From positions 426-13,171 of the forward strand of contig PFAI01000026.1 in assembly GCA_002763225.1 (NCBI GenBank): DNA of 12,746 nt, read 5' to 3'. The position numbers are program-made. Positions within the stretch are counted from its first letter, which is position 1; every line of letters begins with the position of its first letter. Of this stretch, positions 1 through 6,000 are shown one piece after another. This DNA is from Candidatus Diapherotrites archaeon CG10_big_fil_rev_8_21_14_0_10_31_34. GTDB taxonomy: Archaea > Iainarchaeota > Iainarchaeia > Iainarchaeales > 1-14-0-10-31-34.

Positions 1-3000
1 TTGCACAAGAAATCAAAAAAAAGAAACTGATTTTACTTTTTTATTTAACTTCAATCCAGAACCAGACTGAATAAGGTTCTTCCATTTCAGGCTTGGAAAC
101 TTCAATAACAAATTTTTGTTTTCCATCAGTTGGCTCAGTAAAAGAAATTTCTTCAGTAATTCTCTTTTTTTCTCCGTTTTCAACTGAAACAGTTCTTTCA
201 AAAAAATTCACTTGTTCGCCTTCAAAAAACATTTTGTATTCATATTCAACTGTTTTGTCTTCTCTGTTATCTATTTCAAATACAACCTGAATTTTTTCAT
301 CAACTTGAGCTGAATTCACAATTTTATCTGGAATCAAATAAACCTGGGTAAAAGTTTCCGGCTTGACATTCAAATAAGAGTAAATCATTAAGAAACCCAA
401 AACTATAATTAAAACCACTACAAGGCCTTTAAACAAAAAATCATCTGTTTTATCATCAGTTTTATCTGAATCCATGTATAATAAAATAAAGGAAATAGTA
501 TTTAATGCTTTTCAGGGAAAATGATTAATATGGCAAAAGAACAGGCAAGAATTTTATTTGAAGACCTTAATCCTGAACTAAAAAAAACAGTGAAAGAAAT
601 AAAGTCATTCAGAAGAATCAGGAGTGCAATGGAAATCGCGTTCTTTATCGGATCAACTTCTGCAGGATACTTTATTTTAGCTCCAGCCTCTGCTTTGCTC
701 AGAAAAGAAGCAGTAAAAGAAATAAAAAAAGAATACGAAAAACTGGCTGAACTAACTCAGGAAAAAGGCTTTTTTAAATCAGGCGAAAAAAAAGGAAAAT
801 ATCCAGGAGAATGGAATTTCAATCACGAAAAAGTAATAGAAAAATTTCCTGTAATGCATGTTAACAGAAGAGGAGACTTAATTTTCAGGAAACCCACAAA
901 AACAGAATGGATTAAAATGAAACTGCATGTGGGAAGATACAGAAAGCTTTTTAAAAAACCAAAAACCCCTGAAGAACTTTTTTTAGAGCGAATCAAGAAA
1001 GGAGAGACAAAAAAAGAAAAAAAATTTAATTCAATCAGGGAAAGGCTGAAAAAAATTATGAGAAAATAATTAATTATTTTATTTTTTTGGTTCAGTTCAG
1101 GCAGTCTTTAAATTAAGTTTTTCAATTCCTTTTTCTTTTAATTCCGAATAAAACTCTTTTATTGTTGAAAAAGTTTTCCAGTTGTTTTTTTCAGCAATTT
1201 TTTTTAGTTCTTTATCAGGCTGAACGCAGACAGGAAACTCAACTTCTTGCATCATAAAAGAATCCTGGTCTGAATCCCCAAAAGCAAAAGACTTTTTTGT
1301 ATCAAGATTTTTTTCTTTAATTAAATCCAGTAAAATCTCTTTTTTTGTTTCATGCCCCCACATTTGATTCAACAGGTTTCCGGTGTAAACTCCTTTTTTT
1401 ACTTCAAATTTTGTTCCAATAACCAGATCAAAAGGCAGTTTAGTTTTTAATTCCTCTAAGATTTCTTCAAATGACCTGGAAATTGCAATCAAATAATAAT
1501 CTTTGTTTTTCAGGTAATTCATTACTTCAATTGAACCGGGAAAAATCTTGTCGTATTCTTTCATGAATTCTTTTGCCTGTTCTTCAATTTCTTTTTTGTT
1601 TTTTCCTTTAAAGCCTTCAGCCCATGCATTTAAAATATAATTTCCTCTTTCACTCCAAGAAATCTTTCCTGACCCATGATGCCTGATTGTAGTTTGAATT
1701 TCATTTAAAACCTTTTTTGGAAACTTTTTTCTTTTCACAAGCCATTCAATAAAGTCAGTCGGAATAGCCATTTCCAGTAAAGTTCCATCAACATCAAAAA
1801 CCGCAAACTTCATAAACATCATTTTTTTATTTTTGTTTTTTGATTGAATGGCCTCCAAACTGTTCTCTTAAAGCAGAAAGAATTTTTCCGGTATAACTGG
1901 GGTTTTTTTCAGATAAAATTCTGAACTTTAATGCATCTTCAATTACCTGAGTTTTAACTTTTAATTCTTTTGCTGTTTTAACAGTCCATTCGCCTTCACC
2001 TGTATGCGAAACTACGCCAGAAACTTTTTCAAGATTTTTTCCATGCAATTCAAAAGCTTTTTTCAGCCAGTCAATTAATCTTGATTCAATTACACTTCCA
2101 TTATTGTATATTTCTGCTACATTCTGCAAATTCAGATTAAAATCTGATTTTTTCATTACCTCAAATCCTTCTGCAATAGACTGCATCATCCCATATTCAA
2201 TTCCATTATGAATCATTTTAACAAAATGCCCTGCTCCTGCTCCATCAAAAAACTTGTAACCGTTTTTTTGAGCTAAATCAGAAAACAAAAATTCCAGTTT
2301 ATCAAATAATTGTTTTTTTCCTCCAATCATAATACAAGAACCATATAATGCTCCATAAGGCCCTCCGGAAACTCCTGCATCAATAAAATTAATTTTTTGT
2401 TTTTCCAGTTTCTTAAATCTTTTAACTGAATCCTTGTAAAAAGAGTTTCCACCGTCAATTATAATGTCATCTTTTTTAAGATAATTAATTAAGCCTTTTT
2501 CTCCAAACAAAACTTCTTCAACTGGTTTTCCTGCAGGCACCATAACCCAAACAAGTTTTGGACTTGAAAGAGAATCAGTTAATTCTTTAATTGAATTAAA
2601 TGCATTTAATCCTTCTTTTTCTAATTCTTTTGTTTCTTTTAAATCCTTGTTATACCCTGAAACCTTCCAGCCTTTTTTCATTAATCTTCGAGCAATATTG
2701 CCTCCCATTTTCCCCAAGCCAATTACCCCAATTTCTTTTTTCAATATTTCTTTTGGCGGTTCTTCAGAGTTATTAATAAACATTGATTCAAGAATTGGCT
2801 TGTCTGTTCCGGAAGAATACTTTTTCAGCGGAACAAGATTTTTGTCCCAAGAATTAATTATCGGGTCAGTGTAACGCCACATTTCTTTTATTTCTTCAAC
2901 TGAAACAAATAAAGTCTGGTCTCCTGCAATACAATCCAGCAGTAATTGTTCATACTCCTCAATATACTGAATTCTGTTTTCCTGGTCTCTTAAAAGAAAA

Positions 3001-6000
3001 CTAAAAACCCTGTTTTCTATTTCAAAATCAAATCCGGGTTTTTTAGAAGAAAAATTCAAAGTAATTTCTTCTTTTGGCTCCAAAGTAAACACGATTTTAT
3101 TTTTATAGTGTTTTCCTTCAGGGCAAAGACAGGGAACAGGATGCCTGAAAGTAACAATAATTTCTTTTCTTTGTTCTTTCAAATTTTTTCCGCTTTCCAG
3201 AATTATTGGTGTCCCATGCCATCTGGGCGAATCCAAGAAAGCTCTTGTTTTGAAATAAGTTTCAATATTAGAGTTTTTTTTAACTCCCGGAATTGAAGTG
3301 TAATCATCAAACTGGGCTCTAAAAGAAAAATTTTTTATTTCTTTTTCTGTTGGAGTAATTAATAATTTTAATATTTCAGCTCTTTTAGCTCTGATTGATT
3401 CAGCCTTAAATTCAGTTGGATGCTCCATTGTAGCTAAAGCAAGCATTTGAAGCAAATGATTTTGTCCTACGTCTCTTAAAGCACCAAAATTATCATAAAA
3501 TTCTCCTCTCTGCTTTACTCCTATCTTCTCCCATAACTTAATTTCAATTTTTTCAATAAAACCTGAATGCCAGCTTTTTTCAAAAATATTATTAGAGAAA
3601 CGAAAACTCAAAATGTTTTGAAGCATTTCTTTTCCTAAATAATGGTCAATAATGTAAATTTGTTTTTCTTTAAACAATTTTCCTAATAAAGCATCAAGTT
3701 CTTTTGAAGTCTTTAAATTTTCTCCAAAAGGCTTTTCAACAATAACTCTTGTCCAGCCTTCTTTTGGACCGCAAAGCTGAGTTAAACCTGAATCAGATAA
3801 ATTATTGAAAATTGATTCATAAAATTTCGGTGAAGCAGCAACATAAAAAAGCTTGTTAGAACAAATCCCCCATGAATCATCTAATTGCTTAATGATTTTA
3901 GAAATTTTTTCATAATCTTTTTTGTTTTCAAATAATCCCTGAGTATAAGAAAGATGTTCAAGAAACTCTTTAAGAATTTTTTCATCTAATTTTTCGCCTT
4001 TATGTTTTTTGATTATATTAGAAACATATTTTTGAAATTCATTTTTAGGGCAAGGGTCTTTAGCAAATCCTACTAATTTAAAATATTCAGGCAGTTCCTG
4101 TTTTTCAAATAAATGAAACAAAGCAGGAATAATTTTTCTTTTCATTAAGTCTCCGGTTGCACCTAAAGCAATCAAAATAGTCGGAATATTATTATTAGCT
4201 TTCATAACAAAAAAAAGAAGCGAAAAAGTTAAATTTGGATAAACTCAGCCAAAAAAAACAATTAAAAAAGAATCAAATTCAAATAAACATGAAAATGCTA
4301 AAATAACAAAAAAAACCTGATTTTCATTCTGTAAAATAAATCCAAACCAAAAAAAAATCAGATTTTTCTTATTCCGTCGCACATCGGGAAAGCCTTGCAG
4401 CCCCAAAAAGCACCGAATTTTCCTTTTCTAATAGTCATTTCCAGTTTGCAGTTAGGACACAAAGGAAACTTAATTGAAGATTTTGCATGCCTTGAACACA
4501 CAGGAATTCCTTTTGAATTTAATTTTGTTGCAGTATTACCGCATTCAGCGCAATTCATTTAAACCAGAAAAAGAAAAAAAGAAAGAAAAGAATTTAAAGG
4601 CATTGGAAAAAAAAGCTGGCGAAGGGACTTGCACCCCCAACCTTTGCTTTACGAAAGCAATGCACTGCTATTGTGCTACGCCAGCAAAACTGTTCTGCCA
4701 GTTCACATACATTCATTATTTTCGCTTTTCAGCTAAATAGCGCTGCACTAAAAAATTATGTTAAAAACAGTTTATTAAATTTCTTTAAACGTTGTTTTGC
4801 CTGTTGAAAGCTTCCACAATAGTTCAGGCAGAGAATTAATTGAAACTCTTTTTTGTTCAGTTGAATCCCTTTCACGCAAAGTAACAGTCTGGTCTTTCAA
4901 AGAATCAAAATCAAAAGTAATTGCAAAAGAAACACCAATTTCATCTATTCTGGCATAACGTTTTCCTATAGAACCTTTTGAATCAAAAAAAACAGAAATC
5001 TTGTATTCCAGCAAATTATCATATAATTCTTTTGCTTTTTCATACAAACCGTCTTTGCTGACTAAAGGAAATATTCCAGCAACAAAAGGAGCCACTTTAG
5101 GGCTCAAAGAAAGATACAAACGTTTTTCTCCTTTTTTTTCTTCTTCTTTCAAAGCTAATTCAAGCAAAACATAAAGGGTTCTGTCTACTCCGGCAGACAT
5201 TTCATATACATGAGGAAAAAATTCTTGGTCTTCTTCTTTTATTTTCAGATTAGCTGAAGAAACTTTTGAATGACCTTTTAAATCATAATCAGTTCGATAA
5301 TTGTTTGCAACTAATTCAATCCATCCAAGAGAAGTTTCAACTTCAAAATCCCAGCCTTCTTTAGCATAAAAAGCTCTTTCCTCTGAATCAACTTCCCTGA
5401 ACCTTAATTTTTCTTTTGGAATTCCTAATCCTTCATAAAATTTTTGAATTTTTGAAAGATAATAAGCAATTAATTTTCCTGAAACAATTTTTTTTGAAAC
5501 TAAATCTTTTGCTTTAATTAATTCTTCTTTCTTTTTTCCTTCCAACAAAACTCTTACCTCAAAATTTTCTATTTCCTTAAAATTTTCTGTTTCATTTATT
5601 TTAAATGGATTAAAAAACACTTCAATTTCCATTTGATTAATTTCTCTGATACGGAGAATTGAATTTCTTGGGGCAATTTCGTTTCTAAAACATTTTCCTG
5701 TCTGGGCAATTCCAAATGGAAGATTTTTTCTCATTGTTTTTTGGATTCGACTGAAATTCAAAAAAATGTTCTGGCAAGTCTCAGGCCTTAAGTAACCTTT
5801 GAGTTTTCCTGTTGCACCAATATCTAATCCCATCATTAAATTAAATTTTCTTGTTTTACCTAATTCGCCTTTACAAGAAGGACATTTTATTTTTTGTTTT
5901 TGAATTAATTCATCAAATCTTTCAACAGGAGTTCCTTCAGTTAACTCAAATTCTTCTCCAAGCAAAGAATCCGCACGATGAAGTGCATGACATTTTAAAC

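Follow-up and report, generated by a model that had tools for sequence, protein, structure and literature searches.

A fused zwf-gnd gene inserted in a conserved archaeal locus and probably acquired from CPR bacteria

The window, the whole 12,746-nt stretch of Diapherotrites DNA analysed here, carries a gene for one polypeptide in which glucose-6-phosphate dehydrogenase (G6PD, Zwf) is followed by a short-type 6-phosphogluconate dehydrogenase (6PGD, Gnd), so that both NAD(P)H-yielding enzymes of the oxidative pentose-phosphate branch are joined in one intact gene. The best explanation, to which we assign a probability of about 85%, is that this two-step fused enzyme was acquired ready-made within this archaeal genus from CPR bacteria, either directly or via an archaeon. 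The gene sits in a conserved archaeal locus as an insertion of ~2.5 kb that brings in no other gene (Table 1).

Table 1 Features of the fused gene and its flanks, in window coordinates.
Feature	Position	Strand	Basis
DUF1616 protein, synteny anchor on the other side	41..475	-	Pfam DUF1616; orthologues in 5/5 congeners
HAD-IB hydrolase, resident neighbour	1097..1822	-	TIGR01490 109.4 bits (98.3); ORF as called 1097..1858
~2.5-kb segment, fused gene plus ~144 nt upstream	1822..4349	.	blastn; in G000 and G012, absent in four congeners
zwf-gnd fusion gene	1827..4205	-	792 aa, ATG start; stop codon 1827-1829; translated ORF
Short-type 6-phosphogluconate dehydrogenase module	1833..2735	-	residues 491-791; TIGR00872, NF007161, motifs
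Inter-domain linker	2736..2765	-	residues 481-490; variable in alignment, low pLDDT
G6PD (Zwf) module	2766..4181	-	residues 9-480; TIGR00871, motifs, Foldseek
C4 zinc-ribbon gene, upstream flank of insertion	4358..4558	-	66 aa; ORF; 80-85% DNA identity in 5/5 congeners
tRNA-Thr(CGT)	4614..4685	-	ARAGORN; 100% identical over 75 nt in G015
Archaeal-type glycine-tRNA ligase (GlyRS), synteny anchor	4775..6271	-	TIGR00389 523 bits

Pfam places G6PD_N at residues 13-197 (E 2e-55) and G6PD_C at 200-479 (3.3e-79), followed by NAD_binding_2 at 491-647 (1.7e-46) and 6PGD at 659-768 (4e-21), reproducing exactly the four domain limits given in the genome-wide survey's note; no lactonase domain was found in the protein by Pfam. 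Against NCBIfam, the Zwf half scores 455.4 bits with TIGR00871 (zwf; cut-off 400.6), and the Gnd half scores 343.6 bits with TIGR00872 (gnd_rel; 297.2) and 362.7 with NF007161 (271). In an alignment of 25 fused proteins, G15/T17/G18/L20, E157-K158-P159, H188-Y189-K192, and Q248-N249-H250 are invariant in the Zwf half, as are G496/G498/G501, S613-G614-G615, K663, H666, N667, E670, R780, and H786 in the Gnd half, while the linker varies in both length and sequence. The AlphaFold2 model (mean pLDDT 87.7) consists of two confident modules, and its internal values fall below 50 only at linker residues 483-486. Foldseek matches the G6PD fold to Leuconostoc mesenteroides G6PD (1dpg_A; E 5.3e-48, TM 0.89 on target), and the best solved relatives of the Gnd half are the short-type 6PGDs 6vpb, 8ihe, 4e21, and 6xeq. 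With one open frame and both predicted active sites conserved, the sequence confirms a genuine single-chain Zwf-Gnd protein, the one-polypeptide enzyme that the note had proposed.

The 6PGD half had been described there as NAD-binding, a description that the motifs do not bear out. Position 519 is Asn in the fused protein and Asp in all four solved short-type 6PGDs compared, and the consensus of the fused family at this cofactor motif, GYNR, is NADP-like in look. Lys49 and Lys520 stand where the same alignment conserves Arg. Taken together, Lys49 and the Asn519-Lys520 pair, set against the Asp of NAD-type short 6PGDs, lean to NADP+. These two Lys residues, and an activity predicted from homology, leave a little weight for the reading that one module has another specificity or is a regulatory remnant, so that the protein would not run both steps. 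We consider this improbable, because both modules score above equivalog cut-offs, every catalytic position checked is invariant in 25 diverse fusions, and the substitutions are conservative and fall in what we take to be the pocket for the cofactor 2'-phosphate, away from the substrate site.

At the locus, the order GlyRS, zinc-ribbon gene, [fused gene], HAD-IB, DUF1616 is common to five congeners, in which the GlyRS orthologues are 82-84% identical and adjoin Nop5 and fibrillarin; the zinc-ribbon orthologue in G012 matches Zn_ribbon_Top1. Two of the six genomes of the genus carry the fused gene, this one (G000) and G012, which has it at the same place, and the site is empty in the other four (G011, G013, G014, and G015). 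By blastn, homology with G011, G014, and G015 ends at 1814-1821, the HAD-IB start, and restarts at 4349-4352, at the zinc-ribbon gene; in these three genomes the breakpoints lie 40, 135, and 70 nt apart, respectively. G013 has neither the fused gene nor HAD-IB. A search for direct or inverted repeats flanking the 2.5-kb segment gave none beyond AT-rich chance matches.

Among 8000 scored candidates, 5771 were homologues at E<=1e-20, and the best 120 clusters were inspected. All of these, the query's own included, are 764-839 aa long with Pfam domains for both G6PD and 6PGD; identity to the query is 55-85% in the other 119. Organism names are attached to 19 rows, of which 16 are bacterial (15 Patescibacteria-type and one plain 'bacterium') and three archaeal (Micrarchaeota, 85%; Woesearchaeota, 56%; Bathyarchaeota, 56%), in line with the earlier observation of clusters with both domain pairs and mostly Parcubacteria-group names. 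The nearest 13 unnamed clusters (61-63% identity) lie on short contigs whose source organism could be archaeal. The order has matches at E<=1e-10 in 28 of 196 genomes, and one of the five other genomes of the genus is a carrier, which agrees with the earlier counts of 22/195 and 1/5. Matches to zwf and/or gnd occur in 26/215 genomes of the window's own phylum, in 113/401 Patescibacteria, and in 78/401 genomes of the phylum of a Woesearchaeota-labelled genome. The uninterrupted fusion was found in 16 of the 401 sampled Patescibacteria species, in 3 of the 215 genomes of the window's phylum, and in none (0/401) of the genomes sampled from the Woesearchaeota-type phylum.

The query nests among Patescibacteria fusions in trees built from either half and from the full-length protein. 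In the G6PD-domain tree (185 rows), it falls into starred sets of 3, 35, and 72 rows that consist of fused and Patescibacteria sequences, and in the 6PGD-domain tree (163 rows) into a starred clade of 76 rows, which unites Patescibacteria-sample or CPR-labelled rows with unnamed rows and those labelled archaeal. The full-length IQ-TREE phylogeny (48 rows) pairs the query with G012 (100/100) inside a 36-row clade (98/97), within which a resolved branching order was not obtained. The bacterial part of this clade comprises 13 CPR-named rows, three Patescibacteria-sample rows, one 'bacterium', and one Gammaproteobacteria-labelled row (L019); the remainder are 13 rows without an organism name and five archaeal-labelled ones. 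The opposing clade has 12 rows, 11 of them Patescibacteria and one unnamed, and the tree is unrooted, its root being inferred only from this Patescibacteria sister clade. Given the position of the query in all three trees, cross-domain transfer is the best reading, as the survey's note had held for CPR bacteria and DPANN archaea, with CPR bacteria as the favoured source of the fused gene. A tree that unites all five archaeal-labelled rows in a single clade is not rejected by the AU test (delta lnL 40.55, p 0.079), so that a single transfer followed by spread among archaea is possible.

The opposite direction, with an origin of the fusion in DPANN archaea and later spread to Patescibacteria, draws on the same AU result, on the 13 of 36 rows around the query that are of unknown organism, and on the missing root. 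Even so, we hold it to be unlikely. Patescibacteria have zwf->gnd in fused, in-frame-split, and adjacent form alike, and in both domain trees the archaeal rows are surrounded by these sequences. Within the fused Zwf-Gnd protein family of Patescibacteria, to which the query belongs phylogenetically, fused zwf-gnd and zwf->gnd split in the same frame are found side by side. The sister clade is likewise Patescibacterial but for its unnamed row, the few archaeal carriers contrast with Patescibacteria species spread over many named lineages, and the site is empty in four congeners.

The HAD-IB hydrolase next to the fused gene had been put forward in the survey's note as a candidate lactonase. Its likely true start is an in-frame ATG at 1822, directly followed by the DxDGT motif and 4 nt past the stop codon of the fused gene, a gap so short that the two genes are probably co-transcribed. 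This proximity, and the failure to find the known lactonase families PF01182, PF10282, and PF08450 in this 81%-complete genome, favour the view that the hydrolase supplies the 6-phosphogluconolactonase step and works with the fusion. However, HAD-IB orthologues sit at the same locus in three of the four fusion-less congeners (G011, G014, and G015, the last with two copies), the gene is missing from G012, the other carrier, and 20 other fused loci have no homologue (E<=1e-3) in their flanks. Its family matches are of the HAD phosphatase type only (serB-like and histidinol-phosphatase-like; Pfam, NCBIfam). HAD enzymes act on phosphoryl groups via an Asp nucleophile, and no lactonases are known among them. 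HAD-IB is thus a resident gene and not a co-transferred partner, the lactonase idea is not supported, and joint action with the fusion is very unlikely.

Still less probable is a gene already present in the ancestor of the archaeal lineage, passed on by vertical descent and lost many times. The composition of the fused gene is host-like (GC 0.307 and GC3 0.213 vs 0.309 and 0.216 for the genome; RSCU distance at the 21st percentile), as vertical descent would have it; composition therefore offers no evidence of its own for transfer, and the transfer is not a recent one. By its GlyRS gene, G000 is placed with the fusion-less G015 (98/97) and not with G012, so that a single gain needs later losses or exchange within the genus; the two carriers, not being sisters, fit presence in the genus ancestor and then losses. 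Above the genus, however, the fusion occurs in just one other of the phylum's 215 genomes, the other zwf and gnd genes of the phylum are unfused, accompanied by pgl, 33-49% identical, and located elsewhere in the tree, and the nearest relatives, at 55-63% identity, are CPR-labelled.

That the fusion or its archaeal location is an artefact of assembly or binning is already largely refuted, even though the genome is a 65-contig metagenome bin and the contig that holds the gene in another carrier in the phylum, G072, is just 5142 nt long: in G012, a separate species, the fusion has the same neighbours on either side, both junctions are covered by Logan contigs from four other runs (HAD-IB side, X4 600-2504, X3 1725-2834, X5 1654-1927, and X6 1238-2408; upstream side, X3 3997-5400), the single-frame architecture is common to the other 119 of the best 120 clusters, and the G072 contig matches the other contigs of that genome in GC (0.451) and lies at a tetranucleotide distance of 0.0205, against a mean of 0.0222 (sd 0.0068; 24 chunks) for its own genome and 0.029-0.071 for CPR loci. 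The survey's worry about a misbinned bacterial contig is likewise allayed by the genes that the window carries for Nop5, fibrillarin, TFE, and archaeal-type GlyRS (Pfam/NCBIfam) and by the five-congener synteny, which uphold an archaeal chromosome.

In the favoured reading, an ancestor within the genus took up the fusion ready-made, either from a CPR bacterium or by way of an archaeon that had received it from CPR. Judging by homology, the N-terminal Zwf module would oxidize glucose-6-phosphate to 6-phosphoglucono-delta-lactone via the His250/Asp187 pair, whose catalytic roles we take from Leuconostoc G6PD. The middle step is left unexplained by the lack of a known lactonase family in the genome, and the lactone may open spontaneously or by an enzyme as yet not recognised. 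The C-terminal Gnd module would then convert 6-phosphogluconate to ribulose-5-phosphate by oxidative decarboxylation at Lys663/Glu670, with the Arg780/His786 tail presumably reaching into the partner subunit, as in solved 6PGDs. Each of the two steps would yield one NAD(P)H, and ribulose-5-phosphate would feed the non-oxidative branch, for which the 1.04-Mb genome encodes transketolase, transaldolase, two copies of RpiA, and Rpe. A possible source of glucose-6-phosphate is the ROK-family kinase that adjoins RpiA; PGI (PF00342) was not found in this incomplete genome.

The survey's note had presented the fused enzyme itself as new, which it is not. A G6pd-Pgd fusion is described as cluster 1367 in 'Fusion/fission protein family identification in Archaea' (mSystems 2024, PMC11237513), with one Diapherotrites archaeon and 60 bacterial matches in 59 assemblies, mostly CPR (Roizmanbacteria 13, Sungbacteria 7, Magasanikbacteria 5, and others; also Actinobacteria 7). 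It has the same four parts as here, NADP_Rossmann - GADPH_aa-bio_dh - NADP_Rossmann - 6PGD_C (K00036+K00033), and by its predicted architecture and its tree position the window's protein is a member of that family. The archaeal protein listed there may be this one, its 85% relative, or another. The paper's treatment, two sentences and a table row, gives no tree, transfer direction, or genomic context; what the present analysis adds is the comparison with empty sites in congeners, the placement of the protein inside the CPR clade, and the lack of any conserved partner gene. Since both the fusion and its occurrence in the two groups are in print, the present gene is a further example and not a new kind of enzyme. 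Nor, contrary to the note, is a metabolic gene shared across the two domains new: the available parts of the respective papers report lateral transfer of RuBisCO between CPR bacteria and DPANN archaea (Jaffe 2018, PMC6389311) and Patescibacteria-to-DPANN events in groundwater (PMC12455944). As here, metabolic genes are patchy in both ultrasmall radiations and bacteria are the predicted donors, but the genes concerned are others than the pentose-phosphate fusion; the main text of PMC12455944 has 0 occurrences of 'pentose phosphate' and 'fused'.

A fusion in the same enzyme order, likewise skipping the lactonase step, was described for Phaeodactylum tricornutum (protein 54663; Kroth 2008, PMC2173943; Stover 2011, PMC3148214), and the 2011 study found none besides it in nr. 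The likeness is one of description: the diatom protein is eukaryotic and cytosolic, confined to one diatom lineage, and its gene model is disputed. The G6PD::6PGL fusions (Plasmodium GluPho, Giardia, Trichomonas, metazoan H6PD) also join G6PD to an enzyme of the same branch and are read, in the accounts available, as coupling consecutive steps, but their partner is the lactonase (step 2), whereas steps 1 and 3 are joined here. Other DPANN have unfused pgl-zwf-gnd or gnd-pgl-zwf operons (f13, a family of the same order, and the Woesearchaeota-type phylum) with the same enzyme families and presumably the same pathway; unlike the fusion, these are separate genes with a PF01182 lactonase, placed elsewhere in the G6PD tree, with identities to the query of 33-38% for zwf and 35-49% for gnd. 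Within f13, zwf, gnd, and a PF01182 pgl occur as separate genes in 17 of the 23 genomes, the first two at 33-37% and 44-49% identity. Most other bacteria fetched have gnd upstream of zwf (50/129 loci with matches).

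The fused gene is an ATG-started open reading frame of 792 aa, and Pfam reproduces exactly the domain limits that the genome-wide survey's note had proposed for its product (G6PD_N 13-197, G6PD_C 200-479, NAD_binding_2 491-647, 6PGD 659-768). The order of these parts on one polypeptide, G6PD_N - G6PD_C - NAD_binding_2 - 6PGD_C, is the same as in the table row for cluster 1367, a prokaryotic G6pd-Pgd fusion family (PMC11237513). Against the NCBIfam models, the Zwf half (residues 9-480) reaches 455.4 bits with TIGR00871, above the equivalog cut-off of 400.6, and it is also matched by both Pfam halves, PF00479 and PF02781. 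The Gnd half (residues 491-791) exceeds the cut-offs of TIGR00872 gnd_rel (343.6 bits; cut-off 297.2) and NF007161 (362.7; cut-off 271), and at about 300 aa it has the size of the short type and lacks the C-terminal duplication seen in the 470-aa type; with the long-type 6PGD models of NCBIfam, TIGR00873 and NF006765, the fused protein scores below the cut-offs. By these assignments it is a member of the TIGR00871 Zwf family and of the short-type decarboxylating 6PGD family, with the corresponding activities predicted for its two halves.

Functional positions were checked in an alignment of 25 diverse fusion proteins. The G6PD half shows no variation at G15/T17/G18/L20, E157-K158-P159, H188-Y189-K192 and Q248-N249-H250, and D19 and D187 are conserved in at least 90% of the 25 sequences. 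From the Leuconostoc enzyme, we take GxxGDL to be the dinucleotide-binding motif, followed by EKPxG, and DHYLGKE and QNH to carry the catalytic Asp/His pair, a pair borne out by the titles of the PDB entries 2dpg ('H240->N inactive mutant') and 1e7m ('D177->N active site mutant'). The 6PGD half is invariant at G496/G498/G501, S613-G614-G615, K663/H666/N667/E670 and, in its tail, R780/H786; by analogy with sheep 6PGD, these positions presumably represent GxGxxG, the Ser of GVSGG, the Lys/His/Asn/Glu of KMxHNGIEY and the Arg/His tail. An AlphaFold2 model built from the same alignment shows two confident modules (mean pLDDT 87.7), and its sole internal low-confidence stretch, residues 483-486, lies in the linker. 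The N-module superimposes on the L. mesenteroides G6PD 1dpg_A (Foldseek E 5.3e-48, TM 0.89 on the target, rmsd 2.9), and the nearest solved relatives of the C-module by sequence are short-type 6PGDs.

The Gnd half had been described as NAD-binding, a wording that arose from the name of the Pfam domain. As the marker of NAD+ preference in short-type 6PGDs, we used an acidic residue at the end of strand beta-2. All four aligned solved short-type chains (6vpb, 8ihe, 4e21 and 6xeq/10gw) have an Asp there, including 8ihe, which was deposited as NAD+-dependent, whereas the query carries Asn519-Lys520 and the consensus of the fused family is GYNR. NADP+-dependent 6PGDs carry an NRT motif, which GYNR resembles. 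These motifs argue against an NAD-specific label for the Gnd half, and for the fused protein we lean towards the use of NADP+ or of both cofactors. In the G6PD half, Lys49 of the query replaces an Arg kept in at least 90% of the fused family.

The source genome, binned in 65 contigs that total 1.04 Mb, is 81.5% complete and 0.55% contaminated, and besides the fused gene the window encodes an archaeal-type GlyRS, Nop5, fibrillarin, a TFE-alpha-like protein and DUF1616. We located the GlyRS orthologue in the genomes of four congeneric species, fetched these loci and added the full contig of a fifth congener, G012. The conserved order is MIPS - CDP-alcohol transferase - serpin - fibrillarin - Nop5 - GlyRS, further on Zn-ribbon - [fused gene] - HAD-IB - DUF1616. 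From the end of the Zn-ribbon gene to the start of the HAD-IB hydrolase gene, the window measures ~2530 nt, and the same interval is 40, 135 and 70 nt in G011, G014 and G015, which have HAD-IB (G015 in two copies) and no fused gene. G012 carries the fused gene at the same site (84.5% DNA identity) and has no HAD-IB; G013 has neither. The fused gene is therefore present at one site in two of the six genomes of the genus, a presence/absence polymorphism at a conserved locus, and since the flanks are conserved and the gap differs among congeners, the variable unit is the fused gene with ~144 nt upstream of it. A tRNA-Thr gene lies 409 nt upstream, but the conserved 66-aa Zn-ribbon gene separates it from the insertion.

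Features of the fused-gene locus, with related features elsewhere in the genus and phylum
Feature	Sequence	Position	Strand	Remark
Junction-covering Logan contig X4	window	600-2504		example
Junction-covering Logan contig X6	window	1238-2408		example
HAD-IB hydrolase gene	window	1097-1822	-	directly 3' of fused gene
Fused zwf-gnd gene	window	1827-4205	-	
Variable unit, as deduced	window	~1822-4349		
Junction-covering Logan contig X3	window	3997-5400		example
C4 zinc-ribbon (Top1-type) gene, 66 aa	window	4358-4558	-	between GlyRS and fused gene
88-aa ORF	window	4474-4740	+	spurious
tRNA-Thr(CGT)	window	4614-4685	-	between GlyRS and fused gene
Serpin	window	8060-9319	+	full-length; Pfam Serpin E 1e-125
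Myo-inositol-1-phosphate synthase, then CDP-alcohol phosphatidyltransferase	window	10060-11762	-	likely inositol-phospholipid pair
Extra genes of G012 (~3 kb)	L155	8683-11545		between Zn-ribbon gene and GlyRS
Tandem HAD-IB pair of G015	L161	8280-8978 and 9618-10337		52% and 68% identical to the window's copy
ROK-family kinase and RpiA	G000 C31	11950-13543		kinase directly upstream
PF01182 match of G072	G072 C5	34557-35198		inside a 549-aa open frame
PF01182 match of G072	G072 C20	15637-16284		inside a 539-aa open frame

Misassembly or misbinning is very unlikely, because Logan contigs from four other sequencing runs (X3-X6), none of them flagged as a possible source, span both junctions. With the archaeal GlyRS, Nop5, fibrillarin and TFE-alpha-like genes in the window and the gene order conserved among congeners, the earlier assignment of the contig to the archaeon stands. 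The 24 runs that match the sequence are all labelled as groundwater or aquifer metagenomes, and there is no RNA dataset among them. Around the 2.5-kb segment, a search for target-site duplications and terminal or flanking repeats returned only AT-rich chance matches, and no traces of a mobile element were seen at the insertion. A scan of positions 900-4900 for sigma-70 promoters and terminators gave no excess over shuffled sequences, the promoter model being the wrong one for an archaeon. The 88-aa ORF, considered as a synteny marker, was discarded, as it overlaps the tRNA-Thr and Zn-ribbon genes of the other strand. The region downstream of GlyRS varies across the genus; in G012 it holds a HEPN-domain protein and other genes that the window does not have. 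The serpin gene, directly after fibrillarin in this DPANN archaeon, has orthologues of 62-76% identity in G011, G014 and G015, and is not found at this locus in G013.

In a collection of 5.8 billion proteins, the 120 best-matching clusters, among them that of the query itself, are 764-839 aa long and all have both domain pairs; identity to the query is 55-85% in the remaining 119. Nineteen of the 120 are named, 16 as bacterial (15 Patescibacteria-type and one plain 'bacterium') and three as archaeal. A 50%-identity library yields about 14 full-length fused representatives, after which come unfused G6PDs at 52% identity or less. Prevalence was taken from even genome samples; a contig scan seeded on 6PGD motifs, which is not a measure of prevalence, returned at least 603 stretches, mostly of unfused bacteria. 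A zwf and/or gnd match occurs in 113 of 401 Patescibacteria species, with an uninterrupted fusion in 16 (two cut by contig ends), and in 26 of 215 for the window's own phylum, with an uninterrupted fusion in three (G000, which is the window's genome, G012 and G072). For the phylum of a Woesearchaeota-labelled genome, the corresponding figures are 78 of 401 and zero, every match in this sample being unfused and zwf being at most 38% identical. Apparent triple zwf-pgl-gnd fusions in that phylum (open frames of 911 and 1034 aa) resolved, where G906 and G686 were inspected, into separate, overlapping or adjacent ORFs.

The Patescibacteria sample contains five more genomes in which gnd follows zwf in the same frame with only stop codons between, and three in which the two are adjacent in another frame. 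In-frame splits with one or two stop codons (TGA, TAA, TAG) were seen at the loci L101, L114, L115, L117 (=L023) and L118, which represent five Patescibacteria species, and at L004 of the archaeon G090, a member of family f13. In the full-length tree, split forms are interspersed with fused ones, so the two states seem to interconvert. Most other bacteria fetched have gnd followed by zwf as separate genes (50 of the 129 loci with matches), and in f13, a family of the window's own order, 17 of 23 genomes show the classic arrangement, pgl-zwf-gnd or gnd-pgl-zwf, including a PF01182 lactonase. The G072 copy lies on a contig of only 5142 nt, beside a P-type ATPase gene. In GC and tetranucleotide make-up, this contig is like the rest of the G072 genome and the CPR loci are unlike it, which supports, without being decisive, that it is genuinely part of that archaeal genome. 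L019, from a genome of ~0.8 Mb labelled uncultured Gammaproteobacteria, also has an uninterrupted fusion, which shares 49-52% identity with the query; as L019 groups with an Uhrbacteria protein (95/98), its label looks doubtful.

Trees were computed for each domain from all loci with a G6PD match of at least 400 residues or a 6PGD match of at least 260, together with 17 named clusters, the 11 best unnamed clusters (P0003-P0013) and the representatives P0121-P0199; the other clusters of the homologue search, the representatives P0200-P0270 and the duplicates L001 and L117 were omitted. In the FastTree of the G6PD domain (185 rows), the query pairs with G012 (support 100) within starred sets of 35 and 72 rows that consist of fused and Patescibacteria sequences, and the archaeal zwf genes of f13 fall elsewhere, beside a Clostridiaceae sequence. 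In that of the 6PGD domain (163 rows), the starred clade of 76 rows combines Patescibacteria-sample and CPR-labelled rows with unnamed and archaeal-labelled ones. The agreement of the two domain trees indicates that the Zwf and Gnd halves share one history and that the gene travelled ready-joined.

A full-length tree (IQ-TREE, LG+G4, 48 rows, 795 columns) again joins the query with G012 (100/100), inside a clade of 36 rows (98/97) comprising 13 CPR-named, three Patescibacteria-sample, one 'bacterium', one Gammaproteobacteria-labelled (L019), 13 unnamed and five archaeal-labelled sequences. Opposite stands a clade of 12 rows, 11 of Patescibacteria and one unnamed, where fused forms and in-frame-split ones intermingle. 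Thus, the gene tree conflicts with the organismal tree and nests the query in the donor group, as horizontal acquisition would have it, and we estimate a probability of about 85% that the archaeal copies of the fused gene derive from the CPR family. For the transfer between CPR bacteria and DPANN archaea claimed at the outset, nesting in the CPR family is borne out by both domain trees and the full-length tree; the branching within the 36-row clade does not resolve the exact sister group, and one transfer or several, from one CPR lineage or another, may lie behind the archaeal copies, since monophyly of the five archaeal-labelled rows is not rejected by an AU test (delta lnL 40.55, p 0.079). 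On the GlyRS gene, G000 groups with the non-carrier G015 (98/97), so a single gain would imply later losses or exchange within the genus. Deviant composition as a sign of transfer was not found: the fused gene has a GC of 0.307 and a GC3 of 0.213 (genome 0.309 and 0.216), and its codon-usage distance ranks at the 21st percentile among 389 long ORFs. Such host-like composition indicates that the acquisition from the CPR family was not recent.

The probable start of the HAD-IB gene is the ATG at its 5' end in the window, 4 nt past the stop codon of the fused gene and directly followed by a DxDGT motif. Co-transcription of the two genes is plausible and would then be owed to where the insertion landed. 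The genome-wide survey's note had put this neighbour forward as a candidate lactonase, a proposal that is not supported, because the 253-aa ORF matches only HAD-IB, SerB-like and histidinol-phosphatase-like families (Pfam, NCBIfam), because the two genes occur independently of each other in congeners (G011, G014 and G015 have only HAD-IB, G012 only the fusion) and because a HAD-IB homologue was found in the flanks of none of 20 other fused loci. HAD-IB is a resident gene of the locus. In G015, it forms a tandem pair.

The fused enzyme and its occurrence across domains had been presented as new, and both are already in print. In PMC11237513, cluster 1367 is a four-clan architecture (K00036+K00033) recorded in a Diapherotrites archaeon and with 60 bacterial hits in 59 assemblies, mostly of CPR phyla with seven Actinobacteria, and a G6PDH/6PGDH fusion is on record from the diatom Phaeodactylum tricornutum (Kroth 2008, PMC2173943; Stover 2011, PMC3148214). 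Jaffe 2020 describes the oxidative pentose-phosphate pathway in CPR as patchy and phylogenetically shallow, with no fusion mentioned in the sections consulted. Gene sharing between CPR and DPANN is established for RuBisCO (PMC6389311), and one aquifer study counts nine to ten Patescibacteria-to-DPANN events (PMC12455944). The fused gene is a further archaeal member of an already recorded fusion family, a sound observation on an ordinary family. What this analysis adds is evidence of insertion at the level of the locus, the finding that both halves fall congruently within the CPR family, and grounds for rejecting a link with the hydrolase. Together they make a well-documented case in which a complete metabolic module, encoded by a single gene, has entered a conserved DPANN locus, with empty sites in sister species; the chemistry is ordinary and the package unusual, and its value is that of a documented case rather than of a discovery. 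With its closest relatives in CPR, the gene supports an exchange of central-metabolism genes between two ultrasmall groups that share groundwater habitats. The literature search found no enzyme assay of any fused Zwf-Gnd protein. Databases name the fused proteins after one half only, so reconstructions of CPR and DPANN pathways may miss the 6PGD step.

The fused gene is a predicted source of NAD(P)H and ribulose-5-phosphate, both of which most archaea obtain otherwise. Judged by homology, a ROK-family kinase would supply glucose-6-phosphate, the Zwf module would convert it to the lactone with one NAD(P)H, the lactone would be hydrolysed spontaneously or by an unknown enzyme, and the Gnd module would yield ribulose-5-phosphate, CO2 and a second NAD(P)H, the product being taken onward by RpiA (two genes), Rpe, transketolase and transaldolase, all of which G000 encodes. 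The kinase gene immediately precedes one of the two RpiA genes, with which it may form a glucose-to-pentose pair. A second consumer of glucose-6-phosphate within the window is the inositol-phosphate synthase. In G000, whose genome is 81% complete, neither the lactonase families PF01182, PF10282 and PF08450 nor the PGI family PF00342 have a match.

It is conceivable, and in our judgement unlikely, that the fusion constitutes a self-sufficient, lactonase-free oxidative branch, in which joining the first and third steps lets ultrasmall cells drop 6-phosphogluconolactonase. The lactone, released beside the 6PGD site, would open fast enough, or the fused protein itself would speed its hydrolysis, and the result would be a one-gene 'plug-in' module for NAD(P)H and pentose, easily moved between CPR bacteria and DPANN archaea. 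The unfused operons of archaea include pgl, and across carriers there is a weak trend in this direction: PF01182 is above cut-off in two of 20 genomes with an uninterrupted fusion vs seven of 21 Patescibacteria with split or separate zwf and gnd, a difference that is not significant (Fisher-type) in genomes that are incomplete and related, and with a family that also covers glucosamine-6-phosphate deaminases. In the fusion carrier G072, two PF01182 (6PGL/NagB family) matches lie inside much longer open frames, and these domains may be fused to another part.
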